Position numbers and translations under genes: made by a program. A stretch of 64,000 nt of DNA from an uncultured virus (IMG/VR IMGVR_UViG_3300042549_004140) (taxonomy: Duplodnaviria; Heunggongvirae; Uroviricota; Caudoviricetes). The stretch is from the IMG/VR virus record IMGVR_UViG_3300042549_004140, one strand, 5' to 3'. The notes below the pieces were generated by a model that was given only the letters and a program-made list of their open reading frames with translations, made no database searches and was not told the DNA's origin. Every line of letters starts with the position of its first letter. Position 1 is the first letter of the stretch. Below are positions 10,379 to 33,338 of the stretch, piece by piece.

Positions 10379-10777
10379 TTACACGATTTCTGGTTCTGGC
10401 TCTAACGCACTTGGCTTTTCACGAACCAAGACATTACGAGTGAATGAGGAGTTTCCCCACGCTAGGTCGTGTGAAATGCTGTCTGCCTCAATCTCGACAG
10501 AAGTTCCTGCTCGCTCTCCGTTATCCCAATCTCGGATAACGATACTTCCTGTTAGAGATACACGCTCGCCTTTGTGGATAGAACCTGCGGTGTTGATAGC
10601 CAACTGACGGAACGAAGTGATTGTATACCAATTCGTGTGTTCCTTGTATTTTCCGTCAGCGTTGCTGGTGTAGCCCTCGGTTTCCGCTACTCGGAATGAA
10701 GTTATTGGTAATCCCTCTGCGGTTACTATGTGTCGTGGTGTGGTCGCTACTAGACCTGTGATTGTGATTTTTGCCAT
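10379..10777 (-). CDS. ssb: Single-stranded DNA-binding protein
   Basis: ITITGLVATTP...ITSFRVA...TNWYTITSFRQLAIN...KGERVSLTG...SVEIEADSISHDL is an actinobacterial SSB OB-fold pattern. Confidence 0.9.
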   Translation of the reverse strand: MAKITITGLVATTPRHIVTAEGLPITSFRVAETEGYTSNADGKYKEHTNWYTITSFRQLAINTAGSIHKGERVSLTGSIVIRDWDNGERAGTSVEIEADSISHDLAWGNSSFTRNVLVREKPSALEPEPEIV

Positions 10778-10783
10778 TTTGTC

Positions 10784-11053
10784 CTACTTTCCGTATCGGC
10801 GTTGGTGCTTGGTTAGTTTGGTTTCTGAAATCATTTGGACTACTTCTTGGCGTTCGCTACGGAATTTGGTTTCCACAGCCACAGCCTCGGAGTAGCATAG
10901 TGATTTGATTTGTGTTTCTGTGATTGCTCGGAACACTCGTAGTTCTGCGGAGGTCTGCTCGTTTAGAAGTTCGAGTGCTTTTTTGAGGCTTGGTAGAACC
11001 TCAATGAGCGTGATGTTATCGGTGTTGGTGTCGTAGATTGCGTAGTTGGTCAT
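10784..11053 (-). CDS. Hypothetical protein
   Basis: ORF with AAAGG RBS in the operon. Confidence 0.65.
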   Translation of the reverse strand: MTNYAIYDTNTDNITLIEVLPSLKKALELLNEQTSAELRVFRAITETQIKSLCYSEAVAVETKFRSERQEVVQMISETKLTKHQRRYGK

Positions 11054-11074
11054 TTTTACCTTTCTACTGAAAGT

Positions 11075-11365
11075 CTACTTGTTTTGGAGTTCCAAGTCAA
11101 GAAGGAACTTTTTGTCGAATTCTGTCGCTCGCATTTTCATTCTCCAGCCCGCCAAAATAACTAAGTCGCATAGGTCGTAATCTAACGCTTTTGCTAGGCA
11201 CTCCAAGATTTCTGACGAACCTTCTTTCTGCCCTCGCTCGACTTCCGAGATGTAACCAAGAGCCACAGACGACTTCGTTGAAAGTTGGCGTAGCGTTAGC
11301 ATTTTCTCCTCGGTGCGGATTTCTTTTATGATTTCTCCGATTGCGTGGTTGAATTTCATTTTCAC
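11075..11365 (-). CDS. XRE-family HTH regulator, ClgR-like
   Basis: LTLRQLS..SSVALGYISEVERGQKEGSSEILECLAKALD matches the actinobacterial ClgR HTH pattern. Confidence 0.8.
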   Translation of the reverse strand: MKMKFNHAIGEIIKEIRTEEKMLTLRQLSTKSSVALGYISEVERGQKEGSSEILECLAKALDYDLCDLVILAGWRMKMRATEFDKKFLLDLELQNK

Positions 11366-11367
11366 TC

Positions 11368-11790
11368 CTAGTAAATAAGGTTTGGTTCTTCTGGGTTGAG
11401 GTCTGGCTTATTGCGTTCCTCTTGTTGAGCATACGCAAAAGCAACTGCCTCGTCTAGTTCAAAGATTGGCTCGGAGTAATAATCGAGGTCGGTGTCCGAG
11501 TAAACCTCGAACCAAGGATTGTTATACCAAGTTATTAGGTCTTTGTCGGCTAGTCGTTTGAGGTCGGTGTCGCTTTTGATACCTGCCTCCTCTAAGTCGG
11601 CTGGTTGCCTAATGTCGTGTTCTTTGCCCTCCTCGTCTACGAGAAGTATTCGAGTATCGCCACAGGCGACAACATAGAAGTCGCAATCGTCAGATTTCCA
11701 GACAACCTCTACATCACCGCTTGTGTAAAAAATAGCGTCTTGCTGGTCGAGGTCTGTGCCATAGGCACTAAGGTTCTCAATGAGAGCCAC
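11368..11790 (-). CDS. Acidic hypothetical protein, ends EEPNLIY
   Basis: ORF track; operon context. Confidence 0.75.
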   Translation of the reverse strand: MALIENLSAYGTDLDQQDAIFYTSGDVEVVWKSDDCDFYVVACGDTRILLVDEEGKEHDIRQPADLEEAGIKSDTDLKRLADKDLITWYNNPWFEVYSDTDLDYYSEPIFELDEAVAFAYAQQEERNKPDLNPEEPNLIY

Positions 11791-12101
11791 TACTCGACCT
11801 CCCTCGGCTCATACTCAATCGCACCGGTATCGGCATTGACAATGACAGGTGGGTTGTCGTCAGCGTAGTCAATGTCGCTGGCAACGCTAATCCCGAAACC
11901 GAGGTTGCCTGTGTAGTTGCCGAGTTCAGCGAACTTGTGGAAAATCTGTGCTGTCAAGTAAGAGGGGTCGCCAACTCGGTCTGTGTGAGTTAGCACTTCC
12001 TCAACTGCCTTGATGTTATCTTCGCCTGACCAATGCCCGTAGAGGTGGATTGGTTTTTCGAATTGTTCCGAAGTGATGTAGATACTTGCTCTGTCGCCCA
12101 T
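11790..12101 (-). CDS. Hypothetical protein
   Basis: MGDRA...LYGHWSG; own promoter and RBS. Confidence 0.75.
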   Translation of the reverse strand: MGDRASIYITSEQFEKPIHLYGHWSGEDNIKAVEEVLTHTDRVGDPSYLTAQIFHKFAELGNYTGNLGFGISVASDIDYADDNPPVIVNADTGAIEYEPREVE

Positions 12102-12161
12102 TTTGTTTGTCCTTTCTCTGGGTCTAATCCAAGTCTAGTCTTTTGGTGGTGCTTGTCAAGT

Positions 12162-12509
12162 TTAGTAAACGATTTCTTTTTCTTCGCCTGAACAAGACAC
12201 GCAGACTTTCTCTCCCTTGTCTTTTTCTTTGGCATTGTAGTCATAACCAAAGCAATCTTGACATTTGAACTTTACGAGAGTGTCGTGTAGCGAACTTCTG
12301 AAAGTGTCCTGCGTAATGTCGGCCAGATAGTCGGTGTCCATTCCGTCAATAACTTTCAACCAATCTTCGTCTTTTATCTCGAAGTCCTCCACATCTCCGT
12401 TGTGGAGTTCAGCAACCTCGTCTTTGTCGTAGATGATTGCGAAAACCTGCTCGTCAGGGTCTTTCCTTGCGAAATAGTCCGCGAGCCACTTATTCGTGTA
12501 AACAGCCAT
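12162..12509 (-). CDS. Zn-ribbon protein, paralog 1, ends EEKEIVY
   Basis: C-terminal CxxC..CxxC; similar to the 12509 and 13330 ORFs. Confidence 0.8.
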   Translation of the reverse strand: MAVYTNKWLADYFARKDPDEQVFAIIYDKDEVAELHNGDVEDFEIKDEDWLKVIDGMDTDYLADITQDTFRSSLHDTLVKFKCQDCFGYDYNAKEKDKGEKVCVSCSGEEKEIVY

Positions 12510-12856
12510 TAGTAGACCTCATCTTCTTCTTCGCCACAGCCCTTACAGATGTTCTCGCCTGTGTCGCCAGCGTTTTTGAGTTCGTAGTCGAGAGTGTCGC
12601 ATTGTTCGCACTTATAGCCCGACATTACATCATAAACGCTGTCCGAGAAGTCCTCGTAATAGCCCTCGTAAATCCTACTTCGATTTTCGACAGCAGTAGC
12701 GATTGTCGCCCAATGCTCGTCTTTGATTTTGAAACGAGCGTCAAACCCGCCTCCGTAGAAACTGCTCTCCACATCTCGGCGGTCAAACCAAGTGATGATG
12801 ATTTCATCTTCTGGGTCTAACCCAGAGAGTGCCTCTAAAACTTTGCTAACTTTCAT
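12509..12856 (-). CDS. Zn-ribbon protein, paralog 2, ends EEEDEVY
   Basis: Same architecture as the 12162 ORF. Confidence 0.8.
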   Translation of the reverse strand: MKVSKVLEALSGLDPEDEIIITWFDRRDVESSFYGGGFDARFKIKDEHWATIATAVENRSRIYEGYYEDFSDSVYDVMSGYKCEQCDTLDYELKNAGDTGENICKGCGEEEDEVY

Positions 12857-12866
12857 TTTGTCCTCT

Positions 12867-13292
12867 CTAAATCAAGTTTGGTTCATAAGCAGGGAGGCTG
12901 TCAAGCCATTCGACTAACTTTCTTGGGGCAATCCCACCGCTTTTGTTCACTAGGTCGTTCACATAGTCGGAGGTGTTGCCCAAGTAGGTAGTCCACTCGT
13001 CTAGGTCGCCTATTGCTAACCAATCTGGCATACCGAGTTTGTAGCAGAGCAGGTAGTCAATCATTTTGTAGTCTGCCTCTTTATCGGGGTAAAAGTTCTC
13101 TGTGAAATACTCTGCGCTGTAATCTGTGCCGAGGACTTCCTCTGGGTCGTCTTTATCAACCGATAGTTGATACGCTGTGATGTTCAGCACTCCGCTTTCG
13201 AGCGACCAGATGTTTATGTCATAGTTGCGATAGCCCGAATACATTATTGGGGGCGTAACCAAGTCTGGTTCTTCGTAGATTTTTCTGTCCAT
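12867..13292 (-). CDS. Hypothetical protein
   Basis: 141-aa ORF directly behind a promoter (possibly leaderless). Confidence 0.7.
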   Translation of the reverse strand: MDRKIYEEPDLVTPPIMYSGYRNYDINIWSLESGVLNITAYQLSVDKDDPEEVLGTDYSAEYFTENFYPDKEADYKMIDYLLCYKLGMPDWLAIGDLDEWTTYLGNTSDYVNDLVNKSGGIAPRKLVEWLDSLPAYEPNLI

Positions 13293-13329
13293 ACCTAAAT
13301 CCTAAGTTCTAACGAACTTCGTGTCAAGT

Positions 13330-13647
13330 TTAGTAAACGATTTCTTTTTCTTCTCCGCACTTCGAGCAAATAAACCCTCGTTTGTCTAGGTCTTGGGCTT
13401 TGTAGTCATACAGCCCACACTTGTCGCATAGGAACTCTCCGTCCACGCAATCCGCCAGCGTTTCGACTACATACTCCCAATCGCCACTAAATTCATTTAT
13501 GAACTTCGTGAAATCATCATCAGAGATTTCACAGCCCTCAACGAAGTATTCGCTAACATCATCTTTGCCAGCGTAAGCCCACCAGAGCAGAGTGTCTGGT
13601 GGCATTTTTGATAGCCTGTCAATCAGGTCTTTTGCTGTGTAACTCAT
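13330..13647 (-). CDS. Zn-ribbon protein, paralog 3, ends EEKEIVY
   Basis: ATG overlaps the upstream TAA; same architecture as the 12162 ORF. Confidence 0.8.
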   Translation of the reverse strand: MSYTAKDLIDRLSKMPPDTLLWWAYAGKDDVSEYFVEGCEISDDDFTKFINEFSGDWEYVVETLADCVDGEFLCDKCGLYDYKAQDLDKRGFICSKCGEEKEIVY

Positions 13648-14387
13648 TAGTAGACCACATCTGGTTCTTCGACAGCACCCTCGCACTCACAGCCGTCATA
13701 GCCGTATTCGAGGTGGTGTCGCTTGATTTCGAGTGCCTTGTCTGGGCAATCGTCATACCAATCGTGAGGTTCATCTTCTGACCACTCGCATTGGCAAGTT
13801 CTATCACGCTTGGCGTTATCTTCGTGGCTGTCTGGTATGTCCCAAGTTTCCGTAATAGTGAACTCACCCTCGACACCAGAGTAGGTAGCCCCCCAGCCCT
13901 GTTCTTCTTCGCCCTCGAAGTCGAATGACAACTCTGGGTGCTGTTCAGTAATAGCCCTAAATCCCTGCTCTGGGATAGACCACTTGCTCTCGAACGAGTA
14001 GTTCACGCTGGCAGTTTTTCCGTCATCAGAAATCTCAATCTCGGCTGGGTTGGTCAGTTCCCAAATGTCGTGGCTAATGCCCCAATTGCGATAGTTCCAA
14101 TCGGAGGCGTTCTTGCCAGAGAAAGACATTCGCCAAGCCAACTGCTTTTCGTCTGACCACTTCTCATAGCCCTTTGGCTTTTCCTCTTGCTTGCGACCAT
14201 AGTAGTAGTCCAAGTCCTCCTCTGGTGGTCGCACGAAGTTCCAGAAAGCAAATCCGCAATCCATAACTTCTTCTTTGTCGCTGTTCGACCATTTCTGGGA
14301 GTAAGGCTTTCCAGCCTTAGCCATAAAAGCCTGAATGTCCTCGGTGCTACCGCTGACACCAAACCAATTGCTTACATAGTTTGCCAT
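13647..14387 (-). CDS. DUF1281/YubB ferredoxin-like domain protein, ends EEPDVVY
   Basis: MANYVSN...DWNYRNWG...YSFESKWSIP...HPELSF...EEQGWG pattern. Confidence 0.65.
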   Translation of the reverse strand: MANYVSNWFGVSGSTEDIQAFMAKAGKPYSQKWSNSDKEEVMDCGFAFWNFVRPPEEDLDYYYGRKQEEKPKGYEKWSDEKQLAWRMSFSGKNASDWNYRNWGISHDIWELTNPAEIEISDDGKTASVNYSFESKWSIPEQGFRAITEQHPELSFDFEGEEEQGWGATYSGVEGEFTITETWDIPDSHEDNAKRDRTCQCEWSEDEPHDWYDDCPDKALEIKRHHLEYGYDGCECEGAVEEPDVVY

Positions 14388-14497
14388 TTCGTTTGTCCTT
14401 TCGTTTGGCTATACCTCAATGTTAGTTCCAACGAAACTTCGTGTCAAGTTGGATTTTGGAGGAGGGCAGAGAGGAATTTGCCCTCCCCCAAGTTTGG

Positions 14498-16309
14498 TCA
14501 GTAAGCGTTTCGCTTACCAATGCTTTCGAGAGCCTTTGCCCCAGCCTCACCAATCAGGATTGCCGATTGCTCAACCGACTTGCCAGATAGCGAAACAGCG
14601 TGAGCCGAACTGCCAGCCCCGAAGTAGTTTTCGACCTGTGAGGTGCTGTTGTCGAAAGTCAGCCAGAGAACCGCCACGCCAAGTCTGTCGCACTCGGCAA
14701 TCCACTTCTTAGCGTGGCTTGGCTCTGACCCTGCGTAGTGTCCGTCAGAAACGATTACCAGCAACCTCGCACCTTTTCCGTCTAGCAAGTTGAGGTGTCC
14801 GTCAATGGCTCGGAACGCTTGGTCGAACTTCTCTGTTCCGTCTGGGGCTGTGTAGACCCTGACTTCATCAAGTGGCTCACCTTTTCTAAGCGTTGGGAAT
14901 ACGCCAGAGCCGAAGTAGACCATAGCAGTTGAGGCTTGGATACGCCGACCAGCGTTTGCCAGCACCCACGCTGTAATCGCCATTGGTGTCATAGCCCCAC
15001 CCATTGAGCCTGAAATGTCTACCATTACTCCAATGGACAAGGTTGGCTCGTCTGTGTGCTTGCGAGTTTTGTGTTCCCACGCCTCGACCTGCGTGTGGAT
15101 ACCTTTTGATTTGAGAGCCTGTGCCTGAACCAATGCCCTCGACTTCAAGCGACCCTGTGGCAAGACCGAGCGAACGATAGTTACATCACGCTCGCGATAC
15201 TTTGCCTTTTCTAACATCTGGGCGACCTTGACCGAGGCTACTCGCTCAACCGAGGTTGGCTTGCGAACTTCGGAAAGTTTTGAGGAGGAGGAGGTTTCAC
15301 CAGCACCAGAGTTCTTGGCAAAGGTCTTGTTAGCCTCTTTCTTGTTTTCATCTCGGCGTTTGCTGTCGTTGGACTTTTCCTTGACTTCGTTCTCCCAGCG
15401 TTCGTCTTGTTGCTGGTCGCCAATCTCAACGACAACTTGGAAACCTGTTTCCTCCGCACCATTTTCGAGAGCCTCTTTGATTTTGTCAATCATCTCTTGG
15501 GGCATTGGGAAACCACAGCCACCCTCGCCACCCTCGCCCTCGCCCTCGCCCTCGCCATTCTCTTTGGCTTTGTCCTCGACCAACTTATCCCACTCGATAG
15601 CAAGTTGGTAAAGAGGTTCAGCGTTGTTGTGGATTGTGTAGTTTTGAGCCTTACGCCAGATAGTGCGTAGTTGCCCATAAAGTTCTTCACCGAGGTTGAA
15701 CTTCACTAGGTCAATCACATCTGCTACATCAGAAAGTTCCAAAACGCCAGCATCAATTCTTGCCCCGACCAGCCCTGCGATTTTGGCACAGGCTCGCGTG
15801 GTGCTGTGTAGTCCGAGGTCGTCTGGGTTGAGGTCAGCGATAACGATTTCCATAGCACAGGCTCGGAGGAACACTCTGTTCTTCGGGAAAGTCAAAACGC
15901 CCATAGCCTCAATGCGACCCTCCTCTAACAAGTGGAGTGCCTCATTCTGCCCTCTGGTCAAATCTTCGTTGGACTTCATCAAATCCCATTGAGTGAACCG
16001 AGCGTGTAAGGCTTCGTGGAGGATAGCACCTGTGGCTCTTGGGAACTCGAACATCATTTCCCTATCGTTCAGGTCGCCAATGATTTCTGGTTCAGTAACC
16101 CCGAAAGCCACTTTGGTATTGACTTCGATTTCTGCTGTGCGTGGGTCGAATAGGGCTGGGGCTGGGGCAGACATAACCTCACCAACATAAACCACTAGGT
16201 CGTTTCGTTCAGCCCACTTGTTTACAAGTTGCCCAACCTGTGAGCCAACTTTGAGCCACTCGCTAGGAGTGTTCTTTACTGCTGTTTTGCTAGTTCCGAA
16301 GTGCGACAT
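14498..16309 (-). CDS. VWA-domain protein with N-terminal HExxH region (CobT/MoxR-partner-like)
   Basis: MIDAS motif VDISGSM, GT, VIVSDG; HEALH; acidic GE-repeat linker. Confidence 0.85.
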   Translation of the reverse strand: MSHFGTSKTAVKNTPSEWLKVGSQVGQLVNKWAERNDLVVYVGEVMSAPAPALFDPRTAEIEVNTKVAFGVTEPEIIGDLNDREMMFEFPRATGAILHEALHARFTQWDLMKSNEDLTRGQNEALHLLEEGRIEAMGVLTFPKNRVFLRACAMEIVIADLNPDDLGLHSTTRACAKIAGLVGARIDAGVLELSDVADVIDLVKFNLGEELYGQLRTIWRKAQNYTIHNNAEPLYQLAIEWDKLVEDKAKENGEGEGEGEGGEGGCGFPMPQEMIDKIKEALENGAEETGFQVVVEIGDQQQDERWENEVKEKSNDSKRRDENKKEANKTFAKNSGAGETSSSSKLSEVRKPTSVERVASVKVAQMLEKAKYRERDVTIVRSVLPQGRLKSRALVQAQALKSKGIHTQVEAWEHKTRKHTDEPTLSIGVMVDISGSMGGAMTPMAITAWVLANAGRRIQASTAMVYFGSGVFPTLRKGEPLDEVRVYTAPDGTEKFDQAFRAIDGHLNLLDGKGARLLVIVSDGHYAGSEPSHAKKWIAECDRLGVAVLWLTFDNSTSQVENYFGAGSSAHAVSLSGKSVEQSAILIGEAGAKALESIGKRNAY

Positions 16310-16439
16310 TTGTTTTCCTCTCGTTTGTCGTCTAAGTCCAAGTTACCAGATTTGATTTGTTTGTCAAGTCTGATAAAAAACGAGGGAGGGTAGTGGGGGA
16401 ACTACCCTCCCTCTCAACAAAATCTAGTTGGACAAATAA

Positions 16440-17480
16440 CTAGATTTTGGCTGGTCGGCACTCCTCGCCAAACACTCTGGTAAATGTTTCAGCGACTACT
16501 GCCCTGTCATTTTCAGGTGAGGAGGCGAGCAAGTTCTCGATTGCGAACTTAGTGCCAAAGGTGTTTGCGTTATCTCGGAAACCCTCCAACTCTCGCATTT
16601 GAGGCGACCAAGAGATTTGACCCTCTTGTTGCTTTTTTGCGAGGTTGAGCGAGGCTGTGATAGCCATAGCAGGGATACCAAGTTTTTTGGCTAGTCCATA
16701 GTCTGTCGTCATTTCAGCCTGAATGATGAAACGAGATAGCAGAGCCTCGGACAAGCGAACGCCAGGTGCGTTTGGATTGGTAGCACCAATCACGAAGAAA
16801 CCCTCTTGGGCTTTGACCAGCCCTCGCTCTGGGTTTTGCGTGATTGTGATTTCGCCACGACCATCTATCAAGCCATAGAGAGCCGAGAGAACCTTAGTGT
16901 CAATCAGACCAATCTCGTCAATCAGTAGTGGGCGACCCTGTTCAGCCGCTTTTACCAAATCTCCGTCTACCCACTCGAAACCGCCACTTGGTGTCTGAAC
17001 ATAGCCACCAATGAAGTCTGCTAATTCTGTGTCGCCAGAGCCGAGGATAGTGAACAAGTCCTCACCAAAAGCCGCCTCGACCAGAGCAGTTTTGCCACAG
17101 CCCGGACTACCATAAAGCAAGGTGTAAAGTTTCTTCGAGCGAGCCATTCGCAACACCTCAACATCAGCGTTGTCAGTAGACCCCCACTTGCGAGCGTGAT
17201 ACGCCACTCCATTCGGGCGAATGTAAGTTCCCTCGCCAACGAGTGCCTCTGTTTCCACAGCAGTTTCCTCTTTCGTTCCTGCCCCACGCTTGGTCAGTTT
17301 GCCAGCGTTGGGAAAGTAGGTGTCAAGGGCTGGGTTGGTAGCGAACTTTTCGCTAAGACCCTGACCAGCGATAGATACAATCAGGTCGCCTAGACCCTCA
17401 AACATTCTATCAGAGGTCGAAATTCTGTCTTTGGTGTTGAGTTCCTCGAACTCGATTTCTGTGTAATTCGCAGTAGTCAT
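16440..17480 (-). CDS. MoxR/CbbQ-NirQ-type AAA+ ATPase
   Basis: Walker A GSPGCGKT, Walker B LLIDE, ATNP, LSEALLSRF; adjacent to the VWA gene. Confidence 0.9.
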   Translation of the reverse strand: MTTANYTEIEFEELNTKDRISTSDRMFEGLGDLIVSIAGQGLSEKFATNPALDTYFPNAGKLTKRGAGTKEETAVETEALVGEGTYIRPNGVAYHARKWGSTDNADVEVLRMARSKKLYTLLYGSPGCGKTALVEAAFGEDLFTILGSGDTELADFIGGYVQTPSGGFEWVDGDLVKAAEQGRPLLIDEIGLIDTKVLSALYGLIDGRGEITITQNPERGLVKAQEGFFVIGATNPNAPGVRLSEALLSRFIIQAEMTTDYGLAKKLGIPAMAITASLNLAKKQQEGQISWSPQMRELEGFRDNANTFGTKFAIENLLASSPENDRAVVAETFTRVFGEECRPAKI

Positions 17481-17492
17481 TGTTTGTCCTCT

Positions 17493-17981
17493 CTACTCTG
17501 CGTTTTCGTTTAGTAGTTCATCTGGGAAACCTAGTTCTTTTCTTGCTCGCATTATTCTACGAACCAGAGCCGAGGGAGTTTCCCATTCCTTAGTGTTCAG
17601 CAAGTCCTCCATAGAGAATTCCAGAACGATTGGGGCTTTGTAAAGTTCCCACTTGTTATTGTGGAGGTTGTTCAGGGTCTTTGTCAATTCGACAATCATT
17701 TCCTGTGCCATTGGCTCTGGGTCAATACCCTCTGGTAGTGGAACTACCTTGCCGACATTCTGTTCCTTGCGTTCCGAGAGCGTAGCCTCGTTTGGTGCTG
17801 TGTAGCATTTCCAAGGCTTTTTAGGCGACCAAGTAGAAATCTGCCTACGCCAAGTTGATACAGGAACATAGTTCCCCTCGCTGTCAAAGCCCTCTGGCGT
17901 GATAACGATTTGTGCTGTGTTTACACCTTTGCGGAATTCAAGGTAGAGTGCCTTGCCGATTAGGTTTGCGTGGTCTGACAT
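17493..17981 (-). CDS. Hypothetical protein
   Basis: AAAGGA RBS before MSDHA. Confidence 0.75.
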   Translation of the reverse strand: MSDHANLIGKALYLEFRKGVNTAQIVITPEGFDSEGNYVPVSTWRRQISTWSPKKPWKCYTAPNEATLSERKEQNVGKVVPLPEGIDPEPMAQEMIVELTKTLNNLHNNKWELYKAPIVLEFSMEDLLNTKEWETPSALVRRIMRARKELGFPDELLNENAE

Positions 17982-18061
17982 TGTTTGTCCTTTCGTTTGT
18001 CTGACATTACTGACATTACTCTCGTTGAAAGTTCGTGTCAAGTTTATTTTGATTTATTTTT

Positions 18062-18667
18062 TTAGTGGTGGAAATCAACAGGGATTAGGTATTGCTTTTG
18101 TGGGTTCTTCGCACAGCGTTCGTGGTAGTCGCGAAGTGAGGCTGTCCAAGAAGATAAGTCATAGATAGCACTCTCATAGTTCCAATCATCACCGAGCAGT
18201 TCGATTAGTTTTCCTAGTTTCCAGAAATCGTGAGCAAGGAATGGAACACCTGCTGGGTTGTATTCATCAACCAAAGTTGATAGGTCTGGAATACCTACTG
18301 CTGGAACGCACTCACGCATAGCCTGTTTGCGATAGCCGAGAAACCTGTCCATTACATAGTCAGCAAGTTCGGGATTGTCTGCGTAGCAGAGGTAGTTAGG
18401 AATGGTGTCCTTGTCCAGAGTGCCAGCCTCAATAAGAGCCTCTTGCTCTGGTGTGATGAAAACCTGACCAGACCAACGCCCAGCGAAGTTCATACTTGCG
18501 TAGTCGCTGGCATTGTGCCAATCAGACCAAGCGGGGGTGTGGTCGTTTTCTAAGGTCATCTCGATTTCTCGAAACGCCTCCTCTGGGCTGTCTGCCTCGA
18601 CCAGAATTATTTGGATTGTGTGAATGGTGTGTCCTCTCGTAAAAGTGCCATAAGAGAAGTAAAGCAC
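18062..18667 (-). CDS. Hypothetical protein (start uncertain)
   Basis: ~200-aa ORF. Confidence 0.7.
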   Translation of the reverse strand: MLYFSYGTFTRGHTIHTIQIILVEADSPEEAFREIEMTLENDHTPAWSDWHNASDYASMNFAGRWSGQVFITPEQEALIEAGTLDKDTIPNYLCYADNPELADYVMDRFLGYRKQAMRECVPAVGIPDLSTLVDEYNPAGVPFLAHDFWKLGKLIELLGDDWNYESAIYDLSSWTASLRDYHERCAKNPQKQYLIPVDFHH

Positions 18668-18739
18668 ACGCCACCGACATTTGGCAAGTTATTACGAAAG
18701 TTCGTGAAAAGTGTTTATAACGAAATGGTAACGATACGC

Positions 18740-18976
18740 CTAAAAGCCTTGTGGGTCTATGACAGGCGTGTAACACTCATCACATACAAACCAAACTTCA
18801 TCAGCAGATAGGACAACAGCAAATGGATAGAACTCGTCAAGGTCAGAGCCGACCACCTCTTCGCAGTTCTCGCACTGAAGTTTCTCTTCAGGTTCAAGGA
18901 GACCAGCAGTGATGGCGTGGGTAATGTCAATGTCGCTCGTGAGCAGATGTACTTCGAAGTGTTCCATACGTAACAT
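18740..18976 (-). CDS. Small CxxC protein
   Basis: Two CxxC motifs. Confidence 0.6.
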   Translation of the reverse strand: MLRMEHFEVHLLTSDIDITHAITAGLLEPEEKLQCENCEEVVGSDLDEFYPFAVVLSADEVWFVCDECYTPVIDPQGF

Positions 18977-19012
18977 CTTAAAACATCTAGCGGTTGCCTA
19001 TTTTAGGCGCGG

Positions 19013-19264
19013 TTACAGGCCTGTGTCTCCCAAAGACAAGCCACGGTTCGTGGCACGCCATACACTGGCCGAGTGGTTAGCTTCGATACTCGCCTTGGCT
19101 TCAGGGTCCTCATACAGACGTAGGATGTGGACGCATGGGTCCTCGCCATCTTCGAACGCGGTTTCCTCATCCTGGGTCATAGGCATGCCGTCATGCGTTT
19201 CACATACTGGCGGGCCAGCCCATCCGTTATCAATACCAATCTGTAGCCATGCCTCGAAGTCCAT
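19013..19264 (-). CDS. Hypothetical protein
   Basis: AAAGG RBS; GPPVCETHDG...DPCVHILR. Confidence 0.7.
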   Translation of the reverse strand: MDFEAWLQIGIDNGWAGPPVCETHDGMPMTQDEETAFEDGEDPCVHILRLYEDPEAKASIEANHSASVWRATNRGLSLGDTGL

Positions 19265-24662: not shown

Positions 24663-24739
24663 CCCAAAATAAAGTCAGCCCGCCCCGAATTTGCTACAAT
24701 TGAAGGGCTTGGGAGAGCATACAGAAGGCACTCTCCCCA

Positions 24740-27412: not shown

Positions 27413-27413
27413 T

Positions 27414-27599
27414 ATGAAGAAGTTTCTACTGGGACTATTTAAAGACATAATCGAACAGGCTTGGACCCTTTTAGGTATGGCAGTCGCATGGCTCGTACTT
27501 GAAGGCTCTGCTAAAGATTTAACAGGAAACCTCATCCTGATAACTCTTTGCGTCTGGGTTCTTACGTTCCCTCTACGTCGCGACAAGGATGAAGACTAA
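27414..27599 (+). CDS. Small 2-TM membrane protein
   Basis: Two hydrophobic helices and a charged tail. Confidence 0.65.
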   Translation: MKKFLLGLFKDIIEQAWTLLGMAVAWLVLEGSAKDLTGNLILITLCVWVLTFPLRRDKDED

Positions 27600-27829
27600 T
27601 GAAACGCTTCTTTCTTTATCTAAAGTTCTACAGCGAACCAAACAAGTACGATGTCCAGAAACTTGCAACGAAGAGCTGGCGCGACTATGTGGGTACCAAC
27701 AAAGACAAGCGTTATGATATGACGTTCTGCCAAAACTACCTAGCAGGCTATGAAAAGCACTACAGAACTGCCTATGCAACCACTGCAATCGAATCACTAA
27801 ACCCAAGCAAGAGTAAAATTAGTAAGTAG
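27599..27829 (+). CDS. Hypothetical protein
   Basis: TAATG-coupled ORF. Confidence 0.55.
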   Translation: MKRFFLYLKFYSEPNKYDVQKLATKSWRDYVGTNKDKRYDMTFCQNYLAGYEKHYRTAYATTAIESLNPSKSKISK

Positions 27830-27865
27830 AGAACCTCTCTCATATTCACTTCGAAGGAATAAGTA

Positions 27866-28696
27866 ATGGCAAAATCACAGTGGCCGGTAGACGGCAAACC
27901 TGGTAAGGCGTGGAAGGTAACCAGCCCGTTCGGTTGGCGCGTCCACCCTATCAAGAAAACAAAGAAGCACCACAACGGTGTTGACATCTGGAAGGGTGGA
28001 GAACCCACCTACCTAGAGGCATGGGCTGACGGAAAAGTAATTGCAGTTAAGCCTAACGACTCACCAACATCAGGCGGACATTCAGTTATTGTCCAATCAA
28101 CAGTCATGGGCAAGAAGGTCACATGGACCTACTTCCACATGGTCAAGGGTTCAATCAAAGTCAAGAAGGGTCAGCGCGTCGAAGCTGGCACAATCATCGG
28201 CAAGATGGGTATGACCGGTTTCGCAACTGGTAAGCACCTCCACTGGGAAATCTGGGCAGGACACATCAAGGGTCAGCCAATGGCAGGCTTCCACAATGGT
28301 AAGGGCTACTACAACCCAATGACTTTCTGCAAGGCTGTCATTGAGTTTGAGAGAGCTCACGTCGAAGCAGGCAAGGAAACCCCTGAAGATGCCCCAGTAA
28401 CTCTCGCTCCAACTCACTCTGTACCAGAGATCCCAACAGTTGCAGTTCCAAAGGAAGCCCCTATTGTGAAGCCAGAGGCTGTAGTTGCTGCACCAGTTGC
28501 CGCCCCTACTGCTAAGCAAATACTAAAGGTAGGCTCAAAGGGAACTGCTGTAAAGGTAGTCCAGAAGAAGATTGGTGTTGCCCCTGACGGAGCATTTGGT
28601 CCAAAGACTCAGGCTGCTTTAAAGGCATACCAAACCAAGCACGGAATCCCAGCGACAGGCGTTGTTGACGCTGCAACCTGGGCCAAACTAGGCTAA
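27866..28696 (+). CDS. M23 peptidase plus peptidoglycan-binding domain (endolysin-like)
   Basis: SPFGWR.HP, HNGVD, YFHM, TGKHLHWE; C-terminal DGAFGPKT..ALKAYQ..HG...TGVVD..TW. Confidence 0.9.
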   Translation: MAKSQWPVDGKPGKAWKVTSPFGWRVHPIKKTKKHHNGVDIWKGGEPTYLEAWADGKVIAVKPNDSPTSGGHSVIVQSTVMGKKVTWTYFHMVKGSIKVKKGQRVEAGTIIGKMGMTGFATGKHLHWEIWAGHIKGQPMAGFHNGKGYYNPMTFCKAVIEFERAHVEAGKETPEDAPVTLAPTHSVPEIPTVAVPKEAPIVKPEAVVAAPVAAPTAKQILKVGSKGTAVKVVQKKIGVAPDGAFGPKTQAALKAYQTKHGIPATGVVDAATWAKLG

Positions 28697-28744
28697 CCGG
28701 AAATAAAAGTAATTATTACATAATACAATACGCCGGTAGAGAGA

Positions 28745-28777
28745 ACCCCCCACCTTTCGAGGTAGGGGGGCTTCTTT
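28745..28777. terminator. Terminator between convergent genes
   Basis: CCCCCCACCT-TTCG-AGGTAGGGGGG followed by a T-rich tail. Confidence 0.75.
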
Positions 28778-29283
28778 TACCCGCGTTGGCGGGCTTGATA
28801 GATCCAGTCGTGGACAGTTCTCACGTTTACATTAAGAATGTCAGAGAGTAGTTGAGCGATTTCCTTGACTCGGAACTGCTGAGCAAGGCTGTAAGCAGCC
28901 ACAAAACGATCTTTAGCACCGACAAACACCCCAGAATCCACATAGTAAGTGATATGACGTCTGGCAATCTCGAACTTTAGGCTCTTTGTAGGCGTTGAAT
29001 GCACCTTTGCACCCCCGTCATACACGCTTAGAATCAGGTCTAAAACGGTCTTCCGTAAGTGTACGACCTTCTTACTGGCATCTTCCAGTGTCTCACCCCA
29101 CACAGGCACACACAGGGAGCCGACAACCAGTAACTCCCCCTCAAAGTTACCGGACACCCACCACTCAGTACTATAGCCACCATCCGTCTTGATGATTTCA
29201 ACAGTTGCAAAGAACGAATCTCCACCCAGATTTATAATCTCAGGGACGTCGACAGCAACAACTTCAGTAGTTTTGTTTCTCAT
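28777..29283 (-). CDS. Protein with a C-terminal HTH
   Basis: LSDILNVNVRTVHDWIYQARQRG. Confidence 0.65.
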   Translation of the reverse strand: MRNKTTEVVAVDVPEIINLGGDSFFATVEIIKTDGGYSTEWWVSGNFEGELLVVGSLCVPVWGETLEDASKKVVHLRKTVLDLILSVYDGGAKVHSTPTKSLKFEIARRHITYYVDSGVFVGAKDRFVAAYSLAQQFRVKEIAQLLSDILNVNVRTVHDWIYQARQRG

Positions 29284-29302
29284 AGCGCCATCCTACCATA
29301 TC

Positions 29303-29782
29303 TTAGGCAGGAACGTGCGTCACCCAGTAGTAGTTGCACTTCTCGCAGCATGGCTCATTCCACGCGTCCTCCACAGCATTACAGAAGTCCACATAGAAGT
29401 AAGGGTCTTTCTTATAGAGGTTGGCTCTGTGCGTCATAACGACACGATTGAGAGCCTCTGCATTGCTAAACCACTCAGGAAGACCATAGCCCCACATGTG
29501 ACCAGCACGATCACGCAAGGCTCGCAGGTTCTCTACGTTCTTGTCTGTCTTGATGCCTCGGCGGTCAGCCTCTTCAACACACTCGAAGATATAGTTCCAT
29601 AGAGCCACCTCGTGACCTCTCCACATCTTTACTGCAGGGTGATTGCGCCATCCAGCGCGAGGGTCGTCATTACTAAGGACGTTGAGGATCTGGTATCCCT
29701 CAAGGATTTGCTTGTTTAGTCGCTTGCTGTCCAGGGCCTTAGCTGACTCACTGAACTCAATAAAAGGTAGAAATGTTTGCAT
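29303..29782 (-). CDS. Pyrimidine-dimer DNA glycosylase/endonuclease V-like (MSMEG_6728 family)
   Basis: MQTFLP...LD.KRL.KQ..E..QIL...GW.NHPAVKMWRG...HRANL..KDP.FY. Confidence 0.85.
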   Translation of the reverse strand: MQTFLPFIEFSESAKALDSKRLNKQILEGYQILNVLSNDDPRAGWRNHPAVKMWRGHEVALWNYIFECVEEADRRGIKTDKNVENLRALRDRAGHMWGYGLPEWFSNAEALNRVVMTHRANLYKKDPYFYVDFCNAVEDAWNEPCCEKCNYYWVTHVPA

Positions 29783-29953
29783 AGTTAGAAATTAGCACTA
29801 CACAAATAGTTTGTCAAGTCGAAAAACCCCCCGATTTCTCGAGGGGCTTTTCTTGACAGAAAGGAGAAACATGGCTGATAACGTCCATGCTAGTGCTGGC
29901 AACAACTCCCGCACTAACTAAATTGTATCACAATGTTTGCTAAATATGTCGTT

Positions 29954-30145
29954 TTATGCACGAACAACAAAAGCGAATCCAAGCAAGTTCCAGAGAACGT
30001 TGAACATAATAGTGGAGATAACGAACTCCCAAAGAGCACGGTCACGCGACCAGAACAAGATGATGAAGATCCCTAGAAGATAAACAAGAAGTCCCGGAAT
30101 CGAGAACAACCACGGCCCCATAGTAACTACGCCATAAGAATCCAT
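29954..30145 (-). CDS. Small membrane protein
   Basis: Two hydrophobic segments. Confidence 0.55.
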   Translation of the reverse strand: MDSYGVVTMGPWLFSIPGLLVYLLGIFIILFWSRDRALWEFVISTIMFNVLWNLLGFAFVVRA

Positions 30146-30840
30146 TATGGTGCCACGCGTCCGTTCTTGTTGAAGGCTTCATAGGTAAGAGGCATCTTCT
30201 CTGCGAAGTGGCACTCCATCTGCTCAGCAACCATTTCGATTTCACGCTGAGGGAAACTAGGGAAGTGCGTTCCCTCACGGGTAGTACGTAACGACAGGAA
30301 GTTCATCAAAGCACGAGCATTCATAGTTACATACATAGAAGAATACAAACCAACAGGAAGAACTCCACGAGCAATCTCTCGGGCTACACCAGCGTGCAAC
30401 ATCTTCTGATACTCCTCATAGGCAGCCTTGTTCGCATTGTAACTTGAGCGATAAACAGTAGCCAACTGACTAATGTCTCCAAGCTCAAACTCGTAAGCAC
30501 CTGGCTTACCTTTTTGAACCAACTTACGTTCTAGGTTAGGGACGTAGAACACAGGCTCCAGCTCCTTGTAACGTCCACTCTCCTCATTGTAAGAAGCCAT
30601 GCGGTGACGCATAAACTCACGGAACACGAAGATAGGAGCTTCAATGTAGAACGTAAAAGCGTTGTGTTCAAACGGAGAACCATGACGATCTCGCATCAGG
30701 TAGTTGATTAGTCCGGCTTCTTTTTCCGGAGTGCTCTCCACAGCACCAGTTGATACGCGGGCAGCCAGTGTTACTGCCGAGTCCGAAGCCATGCTCTGCA
30801 CAAGCTTAACGGTCATGTCACTGCGGTATTTGATTTCCAT
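30145..30840 (-). CDS. thyX: Flavin-dependent thymidylate synthase
   Basis: HGSPFEH, REFMRHRMASYNEESGRY, NARALMNFLSLR. Confidence 0.97.
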   Translation of the reverse strand: MEIKYRSDMTVKLVQSMASDSAVTLAARVSTGAVESTPEKEAGLINYLMRDRHGSPFEHNAFTFYIEAPIFVFREFMRHRMASYNEESGRYKELEPVFYVPNLERKLVQKGKPGAYEFELGDISQLATVYRSSYNANKAAYEEYQKMLHAGVAREIARGVLPVGLYSSMYVTMNARALMNFLSLRTTREGTHFPSFPQREIEMVAEQMECHFAEKMPLTYEAFNKNGRVAP

Positions 30841-30865
30841 AACGCAATACTAGCACAGCGTTTTG

Positions 30866-31045
30866 TTATTCGTCAATACGAAGATACACAATGGACGTCC
30901 ACGGGTAGAACACAGTATTACGTTTTACCTGAACAAGAACCCCTATTGAACTCTCCTCAATAACTACACCCTCAGCTGCACCCATCTCGATTACATATCG
31001 AAGTCCGATGGAAACCTTTTTTCCGACAAAGGAGTTAGTAGACAA
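30866..31045 (-). CDS. Hypothetical protein (TTG start)
   Basis: Start embedded in the upstream EEPDIVY junction. Confidence 0.6.
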   Translation of the reverse strand: MSTNSFVGKKVSIGLRYVIEMGAAEGVVIEESSIGVLVQVKRNTVFYPWTSIVYLRIDE

Positions 31046-31373
31046 TATCAGGTTCCTCAACATTCATAAGACAAACACGTTCATGTCTAATCTTACACCC
31101 TTCGCTGCAGTACCAAGTCTTACCCTCCCCCACCACAAACCTCTGATCAGACAAATCAAACTCAGACTCGCAGCACTCACAGGTCCTAAAGAACGACATT
31201 GCAGGAGGCTCAAGGCAATCCTCATTATGTAGGAGGATAGGCTCACCAGTATCTACTGCAGCCCACTCACTATAAGTCTCTTCATCTTCATCCGAAAGAT
31301 CTTCACCACATCTAAAGCAGCGGTAGTCCGGCTCAGGGTAATCCTCTATGCCAAACTCAGGCTCAGTAGACAA
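31035..31373 (-). CDS. Cys-rich protein, ends EEPDIVY
   Basis: ORF track; TTG start in the junction motif. Confidence 0.75.
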   Translation of the reverse strand: MSTEPEFGIEDYPEPDYRCFRCGEDLSDEDEETYSEWAAVDTGEPILLHNEDCLEPPAMSFFRTCECCESEFDLSDQRFVVGEGKTWYCSEGCKIRHERVCLMNVEEPDIVY

Positions 31374-31650
31374 TGTCCGGTTCCTCATATTTACCAGGAA
31401 TCAGAGATTCATCTAACCAGCGCTCCACGATACCCCTACGTTCATGCGGCTCAAGGTCCACAAACATTTGATAGGTATATTCAGTGGACTTAACGAGAGC
31501 GTATCTAGCAAACGTATCCTCAGCTATATTCATAGCGCGGTATTTGATTATGTAAGGAACATACTCTCCACCAGTTTCCCCCTGCAGTTCGAGCAGAGGC
31601 TTAGCAAAGAGAACCATACCCTTGTGATTGATTCTAATGTCAGTAGACAA
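31363..31650 (-). CDS. Hypothetical protein, ends EEPDIVY
   Basis: ORF track; TTG start in the junction motif. Confidence 0.75.
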   Translation of the reverse strand: MSTDIRINHKGMVLFAKPLLELQGETGGEYVPYIIKYRAMNIAEDTFARYALVKSTEYTYQMFVDLEPHERRGIVERWLDESLIPGKYEEPDIVY

Positions 31651-31885
31651 TATTTGGCTCCTCACCAAGATTAAGATGACTCACCACTGGTCCAGCAACT
31701 CGAATAAGTTGATTATCAGTCACAGGGTACTCTTTTCCATCTTCCGAAGCAACCATAACTACACGCTCAATATTAAAGCCATAACCACTCGTAACGATAC
31801 GAACAACCTTATAGACGTCAGCGGTGTGTATGTCAGGGCTGTTTTTAAAGACAGCGTAATCCCCAAGCTGTAAATCAGTAGACAA
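31640..31885 (-). CDS. Hypothetical protein, ends EEPNIVY
   Basis: ORF track; TTG start in the junction motif. Confidence 0.75.
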   Translation of the reverse strand: MSTDLQLGDYAVFKNSPDIHTADVYKVVRIVTSGYGFNIERVVMVASEDGKEYPVTDNQLIRVAGPVVSHLNLGEEPNIVY

Positions 31886-32171
31886 TGTCAGGCTCTTCTC
31901 CATTATTTAGGGACGTCGACAAACCTACACCATTACAGGCGTCATACCAAACTTTGATTACGCGAAGCTTCACAGGATTCGCTAACGAGTTAAAAACATC
32001 TTTGTCACGCTTAGTCTTCAAAGCCGAAAGCATGTAAGGCAGAAAAGAAAACGTAATCTCCCCACCACTCATAGCTAGCGAACGCGTCATACCAAAGTTC
32101 AGCTCAATGTCCTCTTTGTAGTTCTTAGCCACAAAAGGAAACCCACCAACTCGAAACTCAAGATCTGCCAT
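31875..32171 (-). CDS. Hypothetical protein, ends EEPDIVY
   Basis: ORF track; start uncertain. Confidence 0.7.
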   Translation of the reverse strand: MADLEFRVGGFPFVAKNYKEDIELNFGMTRSLAMSGGEITFSFLPYMLSALKTKRDKDVFNSLANPVKLRVIKVWYDACNGVGLSTSLNNGEEPDIVY

Positions 32172-32493
32172 AGTCATCTTCCAATCTTTCAATGTCTTCT
32201 TCATGGTACACACCTTTTATGATTTCCGCAACATATCCAACATCACTCCCATCATTGATTAGTCTATGAACCATACCGACGTCGACGATATAGGTTTTGC
32301 CAACCACCAAATCATACATACCAGCGCCTATGCGAGCTGACAGCCCGCCAGTAATCGGACGCCACTCTTCCGAACGAAGAGCGTGAGTTTGCAGCGACAG
32401 GCGCTTTCCAGGAAGCACCTTGAGAATCTTCATGGTAACTTCAGGGCTACTGTAAACAATCATGTAGCCGCCCCAAGGTCTCTCAATAAACAA
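32158..32493 (-). CDS. Cupin, mannose-6-phosphate isomerase type II C-terminal-like
   Basis: ERPWGGY...KILKVLPGKRLSLQTH..RSEEW...HRL.N...EEDIERLEDDYGR. Confidence 0.85.
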   Translation of the reverse strand: MFIERPWGGYMIVYSSPEVTMKILKVLPGKRLSLQTHALRSEEWRPITGGLSARIGAGMYDLVVGKTYIVDVGMVHRLINDGSDVGYVAEIIKGVYHEEDIERLEDDYGRS

Positions 32494-32707
32494 TGTCCGG
32501 CTCCTCTTTGTTAAAAACTCTAGGACTCAGCATACAGTCAATCGCGAAGATGTGGTAGAGCTTTCCATCATCATCTGTAGCGACATTACGAACGCGGTCC
32601 TCGTTGAACCCCTTATAGATAGCTCCATCGCAAACCTTGCACCTAGGCCAAGGGATAGTCTCTATACCGATACTAGAACCAATAGCGTGCTCAGCAATCC
32701 TAGACAA
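32483..32707 (-). CDS. Hypothetical protein, ends EEPDIVY
   Basis: ORF track; TTG start in the junction motif. Confidence 0.7.
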   Translation of the reverse strand: MSRIAEHAIGSSIGIETIPWPRCKVCDGAIYKGFNEDRVRNVATDDDGKLYHIFAIDCMLSPRVFNKEEPDIVY

Positions 32708-32975
32708 TCTCTGGCTCCTCTCCATCACGCTCCGTTGACTTGCTCATCCACTCAGTAACCAAAGCAACCGCCTCACTAGCAGACATACCGTCAATCACGT
32801 CCACGTCCTCCTCCTCCAGTTGCTCGCACAGAGCCTCCAAAGACAACATGAACTGTTGGTTAGGATCCTTTTCCTTAAGGATTACCATCATAGTTTTTAC
32901 AGGAAGATCTAGATACTTAGGGACGTCGACGATTCGATCCCCAATCTTCAACGACACTGTTTCTTTAGTAGACAA
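32700..32975 (-). CDS. Hypothetical protein, ends EEPEIV
   Basis: ORF track; TTG start in the junction motif. Confidence 0.7.
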   Translation of the reverse strand: MSTKETVSLKIGDRIVDVPKYLDLPVKTMMVILKEKDPNQQFMLSLEALCEQLEEEDVDVIDGMSASEAVALVTEWMSKSTERDGEEPEIV

Positions 32976-33183
32976 CGTCTGGCTCCTCACCATTGTTTTC
33001 CGGAATATAAAAGGTGTTCACTACAACAGGACCACCTATGTATTTATCGTAGCACTCATCCGAGCAAATTGCATCTTCAGCCCCGCCCTCCACGACACTA
33101 TCTGCAGCACTGAACTCACGCGCACACTCTCCGCAATACGCGATTCCGTTGTCCCAGTCCGCCTCCATACTTCTCCAGCCCAT
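32965..33183 (-). CDS. Cys-containing protein, ends EEPDVVY
   Basis: ORF track. Confidence 0.7.
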   Translation of the reverse strand: MGWRSMEADWDNGIAYCGECAREFSAADSVVEGGAEDAICSDECYDKYIGGPVVVNTFYIPENNGEEPDVVY

Positions 33184-33338
33184 TAGTAAATCACTTCCTC
33201 TTCTTCACGGTTGAAGCACTCAGGGCTAGAGAAAGTATTCTCAGCAGAGTATCGGCCACAACCACACACACAGCGCGGAGTATTTACAGCCTCGCGGAGG
33301 ATCTCCTCTAGAGACTTCTTACTATACGTTGCGCTCAC
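33183..33338 (-). CDS. Small protein, ends EEEEVIY
   Basis: Read manually: GTG start, CVCGC motif, TAATG overlap with the next gene. Confidence 0.55.
   Translation of the reverse strand: MSATYSKKSLEEILREAVNTPRCVCGCGRYSAENTFSSPECFNREEEEVIY

Follow-up and report, generated by a model that had tools for sequence, protein, structure and literature searches.

A short acidic and hydrophobic peptide, E-E-(P/E/K)-(D/N/E)-(I/V/L)-(V/I)-Y, recurs, complete or slightly altered, at the C-terminus of 15 proteins encoded in a stretch of 64,000 nucleotides (the window) of the uncultured virus IMGVR_UViG_3300042549_004140, a member of the Caudoviricetes. We describe here this tail, which is conserved as a peptide and not merely as DNA, and whose codons, in one of the two gene clusters where it is found, also serve as the translation junction with the next open reading frame (ORF). 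[quoted passage not shown] The reading that we favour, giving it about an even chance, is that the tail serves for docking, as a short C-terminal peptide, portable and of the SSB-tip kind, which would plug the proteins that carry it into a candidate site reading the SsbB tip.

Occurrence and position of the tail

The 15 C-termini had been listed in an earlier reading of the same letters, made without database searches (hereafter the sequence-only reading), and all of them were found at the stops quoted there, on the minus strand, in two clusters (Table 1). When the last seven residues of the 1175 stop-to-stop frames of at least 30 codons, taken from all six frames, were scored against the consensus, 11 frames reached 7 out of 7, two reached 6 and two reached 5, while the next nine stopped at 4: because of this gap between the 15 bearers and the next-best frames, the class of tails is sharply bounded. 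A count against shuffled controls, which had been proposed as a check, is in agreement: the degenerate DNA pattern, allowing up to 3 mismatches, occurs nine times, always on the minus strand, versus a mean of 0.03 in 100 shuffles. A chance origin of the shared tail is excluded.

The bearers had also been described as mostly unrelated. After trimming of the tail, the 15 ORFs fall into 13 BLAST families, and the description has to be corrected for three of them (12162, 12509 and 13330), which are zinc-ribbon paralogs. In PHROGs, the tail proteins received no functional assignment, with the exception of a weak match to phrog_8595 at 32700-32993 (E 6e-6); that family is annotated as 'tail assembly chaperone', and the ORF sits in an array of non-structural genes. 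No match was obtained when the region 30800-33400 of the window was compared by blastn with a phage collection.

A looser core, [ED][ED]x[DNEQ][ILVM][ILVM], searched in the 462 predicted genes (70,573 residues) of four genomes, was found 24 times: in 17 cases it is followed by at most one residue, in 5 by 2-8 residues, and only two copies are internal. Both of the latter are the same N-terminal copy (residues 7-12), present in the 12867 protein and in its ortholog (55% identity) from the related genome G006, where it is kept as FEEPDLV, the C-terminus of that ortholog being EYEPRKV. Variants with trailing residues include EEKDLLTT, EEEDLLND, PEQDVVYGGEA and EEAQIIYQ. The tail sits almost only at the ends of proteins.

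Selection on the peptide

The codons of the tail were analyzed in a set of 27 Tyr-ending tails, from the window and from three divergent relatives, G002 (95 kb), G007 (50 kb) and G006 (28 kb). From the first to the third codon position, the mean entropy per column is 0.63, 0.28 and 1.30, and differences from the consensus number 35, 13 and 80 at the same three positions. Within the frame of the tail, 58 of the differing codons are synonymous and 40 are not, versus 11 and 83 in one of the other two frames, and 10 and 78 in the other. Replacements, where they occur, are conservative (D/N/E, I/V/L and P/E/K), and all three stop codons are used (TAA in 13 tails, TAG and TGA in 7 each), so that the original description of a mainly synonymous variation, closed by any of the three stops, holds.

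These figures bear directly on the alternative that conservation operates at the nucleotide level only, the repeated DNA being a junction of ribosome-binding site, start and stop codons, or a recombination linker, and the peptide being devoid of function. Two further observations stand against it. The six cluster 1 tails other than the SSB tip keep the peptide without the TTG and without the GAGGAG found in cluster 2, and are followed by a separate Shine-Dalgarno (SD) sequence and ATG, by a TAATG overlap, or by a promoter-like TTGACA-17-TAnnnT site. Moreover, Api92-like orthologs sharing 37% identity retain the tail, encoded by different codons. Taken together, the codon periodicity, the cluster 1 tails and these divergent orthologs indicate that the constrained frame is that of the upstream protein: selection acts on the peptide, and not on the junction alone, as the sequence-only reading had suggested.

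The 3' ends of two of the zinc-ribbon paralogs, 12162 and 13330, coincide at the DNA level over a short stretch (12132-12185 and 13299-13353, minus strand): they share the last six codons of the tail, the stop and the next 8 bases, for a total of 29 identical bases, and the first Glu codon is shared, too. The common stretch runs into a perfect TTGACA -35 sequence, with a TAnnnT -10 sequence at 16-17 bases; similar TTGACA sites are found after tails of G002 and G007.

Relation to SSB tips

The tip of the SSB encoded in the window, EPEPEIV, and the end of the 32700 protein, EEPEIV, are identical in the last five residues; relatives of the latter, at the loci L214 and L233, are Tyr-less as well. 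SSB tips in related genomes are of the same kind (EEPTIV in G002, EEPAIV in G007, EPEPEIV in G006), and among 22 related phage loci found to hold an SSB, 11 have a tip of the form EPE-x-E-(I/L/M)-V.

The nearest bacterial SSBs, 53-67% identical to that of the phage, come from genomes labelled Rhodoluna, Microbacteriaceae or Micrococcales, several of them lying on contigs of 160-725 kb and one gene being located between msrA and an ABC-F ATPase gene. These relationships point to a Rhodoluna-like clade as the probable host clade. SsbB-type tails of this clade share the motif, which is mostly followed by small or basic residues (…EPELELVGAKKK, …EPEPELVGAKKK, …EEEELVAAK, …EEKELALAK). Over 133 residues, identity between the phage SSB and the SsbB-like SSB of the genome G008 amounts to 60%, with an alignment extending through the tail to the third-from-last residue, versus 34% with the canonical SsbA of the same genome, which ends in …GDDTPF. 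A G007 protein ending in …EPEQDVVYGSAK resembles …EPEPELVGAKKK, like a hybrid of both forms. The SSB tips of the phages, the SsbB tails of the host clade and this hybrid form, compared as sequences, lead to the identification of the tail as an SsbB-type SSB tail, in most cases extended by Tyr. The likeness to the tips of both the phage SSB and the SsbB of the probable host clade had escaped the sequence-only reading.

SSB tails are established docking handles (PMC3616714, PMC5928155). [quoted passage not shown]

G005, a near-identical relative of the window, encodes at L236:2308-2889 (plus strand) a protein with a DUF669 match (E 4.4e-8) and a linker rich in Pro and Ala. A Sak4-like AAA_24 protein was considered as reader of the EPEPEIV-type tip and set aside, since its gene is followed by a DUF669 protein of its own, with a tip like that of the host SsbA.

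The cluster 2 junction

The ORFs of cluster 2 overlap, and at seven of the eight junctions an in-frame TTG for the next ORF is formed within the tail codons (ATT-GTC or GTT-GTC), the eighth being a TAATG overlap. The TTG is kept in all seven, and in six of them the Glu-Glu codons provide a GAGGA or AGGAG 13 bases upstream, the layout being GAGGA, 8 bases and in-frame TTG. For the cupin gene, the TTG at 32493, within the tail codons of the upstream ORF, is the sole in-frame start, and the Pfam match already begins at residue 4; for the other six ORFs an ATG or GTG located 15-18 bases upstream is also in frame, and public gene calls for the 31035 family use an ATG. The Val of the tail is encoded by GTC in 6 of 7 cluster 2 tails, versus 16-21% elsewhere (binomial 1e-4 to 5e-4). 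The preference for GTC and the invariant TTG indicate a second constraint in cluster 2, acting at the nucleotide level. Cluster 2 tail codons double as the translation junction of the next ORF, alongside their coding for the peptide, a feature which had also been missed previously.

The same features are those which speak for a purely nucleotide-level conservation: the GAGGA and the in-frame TTG held by the tail codons, the use of GTC and of ATT or GTT above the level predicted by codon usage, and the insertion or deletion of an ORF, bounded by the repeat, that distinguishes two of the related genomes. Compared with G002, G007 contains an extra ORF of 48 residues. The additional segment has a copy of the junction on either side, and after the second one the sequence corresponds to that following the single copy of G002, so that gain or loss at the junction involves entire ORFs. 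A weaker argument comes from contigs of lake water (four runs), which match only the junction, over about 45 bases (32463-32507), with unlike flanks; these matches are short, with sides of less than 30-45 bases, and were not counted as evidence of rearrangement. The junction is, as a sole explanation, largely refuted by the distribution of synonymous changes and by the tails conserved outside cluster 2, and we consider it highly improbable; it is also the explanation that the sequence-only reading had itself singled out as fatal to its claim.

In two of the lake-water runs, X10 and X12, the 46 bases at 32164-32209, corresponding to a conserved C-terminal part of the cupin, are several-fold deeper than their surroundings. 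The extra depth probably comes from another abundant organism sharing the conserved cupin motif, the contigs being unlike on both sides.

Structure models

In the AlphaFold2 model of the Api92-like protein, with a mean predicted local distance difference test (pLDDT) of 87, the last 16 residues are modelled as coil at low confidence, their two block means being 54 and 48. The best match in a fold search with this model, and the sole one, was Api92 itself (2ijr, E 1.7e-3, probability 0.99). The zinc-ribbon paralogs feature an N-terminal helical part and a C-terminal ribbon with four Cys. In the model of one of them (13330, mean pLDDT 86), residues 100-102, E-K-E, are placed in the last strand of the ribbon, while the final I-V-Y is predicted as free coil, with a pLDDT of 66 over the last five residues; a fold search with this model returned no match at E <=0.001, generic zinc-ribbon entries only, and neither search pointed to a function. 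In the proteins modelled, the hydrophobic end of the tail is thus predicted to be free, or to lie in a low-confidence extension.

Exposure of the tail in the models is also compatible with a role as a degradation or turnover tag, timed by a protease of the host or of the phage, or as a protease decoy. Bacterial degrons usually consist of tags at the C-terminus, and the bearers are small accessory proteins encoded in operons with matches to sigma-70-like promoters. This explanation seems to us quite unlikely: the SSB, having nearly the same tip, would be degraded as well, an acidic peptide ending in I-V-Y is unlike the nonpolar …LAA ending of the ssrA type, which ClpX or tail-specific proteases recognize, and no protease gene was found in the window by family scans.

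Distribution in related phages

At the locus syntenic to cluster 2, G002 and G007 contain five or six small ORFs whose products carry the tail as well, none of which shows BLAST similarity to the cluster 2 ORFs of the window, save for the pair formed by the 31363 protein and the G002 ORF at 49312 (36% identity over 36 residues, E 3e-4). A scan of a metagenome collection selected 23 loci: 14 contain ORFs ending with the tail, and nine are chance matches, where no ORF ends. In some loci the tail ORFs form arrays of six (L213, L217, L224) or seven (L233) consecutive members. Altogether, 67 distinct Tyr-ending tail proteins could be grouped into 22 BLAST families. Members of unrelated pairs are 72% identical in the tail, a figure inflated by the choice of the set by tail score, and 7% in the preceding 20 residues; for homologous pairs with less than 40% identity the corresponding values are 67% and 14%.

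The tail had been described as portable, and a look at homologs found elsewhere had been proposed as a check; portability is borne out by the 22 families of the clade and by the Api92-like proteins. In this family (145 matches at E <=0.001) the tail is found in only 10 of the 120 matches listed, either as the very last residues or with one or two more after it; among these matches, all of the tail-bearing homologs (P0001-P0008, P0026 and P0028) are at least 44% identical to the window protein. For the 31035 protein, three homologs were found in a large protein collection (55-97% identity), all of them ending in EEPDIVY.

The module formed by the AAA_5, VWA and Api92-like genes was recognized at 80 related phage loci. 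Nine of these were read gene by gene, and the motif was found in one only, L051, as the variants EEKEVV, EEEEVV, EDIIYS and EEAQIIYQ; no comparable sharing of other C-terminal tails was seen in the tail-less relatives among these nine loci. Similarly, none of the 43 coding sequences read in Actinomycetia phage DSL-LC01, the nearest isolate (44% identity in the VWA protein), carries the tail. The exact pattern of the tail, including the stop, occurs in six contigs of a viral collection, while four Rhodoluna-like genomes gave no match to the tail DNA pattern, versus 3 for the reversed control.

The neighborhood of cluster 1 suggests a different role, as a client tag for the adjacent MoxR-type AAA_5 ATPase and VWA protein: the MIDAS (metal ion-dependent adhesion site) of the VWA protein would bind an acidic residue and the ATPase would take the C-terminus, for remodelling of the tagged proteins, many of which are rich in Cys, or for their loading with metal. 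The gene order AAA_5, VWA, Api92-like protein with tail, zinc-ribbon proteins with tail and SSB is kept in the window, G002, G006 and G007. The VWA protein is 63-80% identical in G002, G007 and G006, and its D-x-S-x-S motif is intact, with D431, S433 and S435 conserved without exception in 28 relatives. CxxC-type motifs can be read in the translations of about 8 of the window's 14 tail proteins other than the SSB. The arrangement resembles that of CbbQO, a rubisco activase formed by a MoxR/VWA pair, in that an ATPase and a MIDAS-containing VWA protein are encoded beside candidate clients; CbbQO is reported to require both an acidic residue on the substrate surface, for the MIDAS, and a C-terminal motif of the substrate (PMC4660213).

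The resemblance ends there, the phage pair being far more widespread than the tail: many relatives without the tail, among them DSL-LC01 and most of the 80 loci, have it as well. Some 15 kb separate the pair from cluster 2, so that adjacency holds for cluster 1 only; Asn replaces Asp at position 4 of the tail in 7 of 27 cases; and a related motif is present on the host SsbB, for which no connection with a machine of this type is known. Co-folding of the VWA protein (28-row alignment) with Mg, Zn and a zinc-ribbon tail protein (11 rows) gave scores of 0.00 and 0.00, to be read against a mark of 0.32 and in a run without controls; these scores weigh neither for nor against binding. Contact between the pair and the tail is a candidate by analogy with CbbQO, and we consider a client tag unlikely.

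Genes of the window

The gene content of the window is that of a large actinophage, including three WhiB genes, DUF3039, NrdHIEF, ThyX, GroES, a PrimPol-D5 helicase, the AAA_5 ATPase and the VWA protein. The coordinates of the tail-bearing ORFs, and of the genes discussed together with them, are collected in Table 1.

Table 1. Tail-bearing ORFs of the two clusters and associated genes
Coordinates	Strand	Gene or product	C-terminal end	Family matches and remarks
10379..10777	-	SSB, SsbB type	EPEPEIV (tail without final Tyr)	PF00436, E 2.7e-15
11368..11790	-	140-residue ORF	EEPNLIY	No Pfam or PHROG match; G006 ortholog (43% identity) ends in EEPDVVY
12162..12509	-	Zinc-ribbon paralog	EEKEIVY	Directly followed by TTGACA promoter-like site (12159-12132)
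12509..12856	-	Zinc-ribbon paralog	EEEDEVY	Stop overlaps next ATG (TAATG)
12867..13292	-	141-residue ORF	YEPNLI (no Tyr)	Second motif copy, YEEPDLV, at residues 6-12 (core 7-12)
13330..13647	-	Zinc-ribbon paralog	EEKEIVY	Followed by TTGACA promoter-like site
13647..14387	-	Api92/DUF1281-like protein	EEPDVVY	PF18406, E 5.4e-4; directly downstream of VWA gene
14498..16309	-	VWA protein, D-I-S-G-S-M MIDAS-type motif (context gene)		PF05762, E 1e-3
16440..17480	-	MoxR-like AAA_5 ATPase (context gene)		PF07728, E 5e-19
30866..31063	-	Last ORF of cluster 2 array	No tail	In-frame TTG at 31045, inside upstream tail
31035..31388	-	117-residue Cys-rich ORF	EEPDIVY	
31363..31668	-	ORF	EEPDIVY	Weak BLAST link to G002/G007 array members
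31640..31903	-	ORF	EEPNIVY	
31875..32213	-	ORF	EEPDIVY	
32158..32493	-	Cupin (mannose-6-P isomerase C-terminal type)	No tail	PF01050, E 8.3e-17, match from residue 4
32483..32728	-	ORF	EEPDIVY (codons ATT GTT TAT)	
32700..32993	-	ORF	EEPEIV (TAG in place of the TAC of the others)	Last five residues as in SSB tip
32965..33183	-	ORF	EEPDVVY	
33183..33338	-	51-residue Cys-rich ORF	EEEEVIY	Stop overlaps next ATG

The position of the bearers within the genome is relevant to the possibility that the tail is a capsid or virion loading signal, comparable to the cargo peptides of encapsulins, for delivery together with the DNA at the next infection. Encapsulin loading relies on a shared C-terminal peptide on unrelated cargo, and a single receptor for many clients fits the pattern described here. 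The bearers, however, fall within the replication and nucleotide-metabolism arm (SSB, ThyX, WhiB, ribonucleotide reductase), and not beside structural genes; a related tip is found on the SSB; and no structural gene of the window carries the tail, as checked by a scan of the last seven residues. A loading signal is, in our opinion, very unlikely.

A TPR-like gene at 52684-53256 had been indicated as a possible hub for the tails. This suggestion is not supported: neither TPR nor other matches were found for this gene in Pfam or PHROGs.

Other features of the window are reported here for completeness. A strong terminator-like hairpin of 13 pairs, of which 8 are G-C, with a run of T after it, is located between the AAA_5 and VWA genes (16382-16413, minus strand). 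The WhiB-family genes lie at 34075-34605, 41221-41547 and 62577-63119, on the minus strand, the first being fused to a WhiA-type helix-turn-helix (PF02650, E 1.6e-7). A protein of 1810 residues, with 13 matched collagen triple-helix stretches (PF01391, E 1.5e-166), is encoded at 47242-52674 on the plus strand, and is probably a fibre or decoration protein.

The docking reading

According to the reading that we favour, the tail would plug all of its bearers into one binding site, on a partner which also reads the SSB tip, as SSB tips do elsewhere; the partner may be a protein of either the phage or the host. Docking might bring accessory proteins to this partner, or let them compete with the SSB for it.

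The closest term of comparison is the C-terminal tip of bacterial SSBs (SSB-Ct: D-D-D-I/L-P-F, or DEPPF in Streptomyces SsbA), which elsewhere acts as a handle for the binding of partners (PMC3616714 and PMC5928155). Both peptides have an acidic stretch followed by hydrophobic residues, an aromatic residue being the last one in most copies of the tail; both sit at the extreme C-terminus, after a flexible segment; and a Tyr-less form of the tail is found on the SSB of the phage itself. The two differ in that the classical system consists of one SSB tail and many partners, while here many proteins share one tail, and in that the tail is of the SsbB type (EPEPE-L/I-V), not of the …DDTPF type, with some copies followed by trailing residues.

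Among phages, the nearest precedent is offered by T7, in which the SSB, gp2.5, and the primase-helicase, gp4, have acidic C-terminal tails ending in Phe, and both dock on the gp5 polymerase. As in T7, whose gp2.5 tail is the subject of PMC10359462, unrelated proteins, including an SSB, share an acidic tail with an aromatic end; unlike in T7, where two replication proteins are involved, the tail is found here on at least 22 families of mostly tiny ORFans, arranged in arrays. Neither the window nor the 24 large ORFs scanned in G002, out of 27 with 230 residues or more, revealed a gene for a DNA polymerase. In T4, similar C-terminal peptides dock gp43, gp33 and gp55 on the sliding clamp gp45; that motif is hydrophobic rather than acidic and its hub is known, while no clamp gene was found here.

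Several points weigh against docking on an SSB partner. More than a dozen different small proteins would converge on it without a clear biological rationale, and we know of no partner of any SsbB tail. The tail is unlike the tip of canonical host SsbA, which in four Rhodoluna-like genomes ends in GDDTPF or SDDTPF, and its likeness to SSB tips extends over 5-6 residues, between peptides which are both acidic and hydrophobic. In 5 of 24 instances the motif is trailed by 2-8 residues, and in host SsbB tails GAKKK comes after it: the free terminal carboxylate, which defines classical SSB-Ct binding, would thus not be strictly needed. Furthermore, the DUF669 protein of G005 ends in …PADAPF, like the host SsbA tip, and its gene comes directly after those for a Sak4-like AAA_24 protein and a PD-(D/E)XK nuclease; the lineage therefore carries two different SSB-type tips, and the DUF669 protein, rather than the SSB ending in EPEPEIV, may be the one serving the replication and recombination enzymes. 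As to the conservation of the peptide, it may in the zinc-ribbon family be partly structural, the acidic part being modelled within the fold. Lastly, G002 and G007 are sets of orthologs, so that the 27 tails cannot be treated as independent of each other; the codon periodicity is, however, too strong to be due to this kinship.

If the tail is a docking peptide, the cluster 2 junction acquires a further meaning, as an ORF entering the array could gain both a start signal and an address. More specifically, cluster 2 may work as a series of plug-and-play cassettes, in which a small ORF recombined into the array at the repeat of about 24 bases inherits a ribosome site and a TTG upstream, and the address of the SsbB-tip receptor at its own end. 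This we propose tentatively, as a possibility with the chances rather against it. A partial parallel is found in T4-type phages, in which repeats composed of a promoter and a stem-loop (PeSL) mediate the modular shuffling of small ORFs (PMC2839356, PMC4122927). The two cases have in common short repeats that border small variable ORFs in hyperplastic regions, with gain and loss of genes at the repeats. PeSLs, on the other hand, are non-coding regulatory DNA, while the repeat described here is coding, conserved as a peptide, and supplies the SD sequence and the start of the next ORF.

The statement of the sequence-only reading that no phage system of this form has been described was too strong, in the light of the T7 tails. 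For this particular system, no description of the motif, or of shared tails in freshwater actinophages, was found in the literature, most subscription journals being outside the coverage. The system is distinguished by how many families bear the tail, by tandem arrays whose junction is dual-coded, and by the tie to the tip of the SsbB type, not to the canonical one.

Implications

Should the tail prove to be a docking handle, one peptide would open up a whole class of otherwise unannotatable phage ORFans, comprising more than 20 families, and would offer a first clue to what the C-terminus of actinobacterial SsbB-type proteins binds. Genome editing has been reported in Rhodoluna-like freshwater actinobacteria (PMC11577799), and the tail could serve there as a tag for the targeting of proteins.

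If the cassette reading is also true, this clade of phages would have at its disposal a collection of accessory proteins that is open to evolution and is directed as a whole to a single hub, in a manner reminiscent of integrons, with the difference that the shared element would be a protein address, and not a recombination site alone. That one stretch of 24 bases serves as address, ribosome site and start codon, and that ORFs are gained or lost at this very position, suggests a route by which new genes may be recruited into a functional network.

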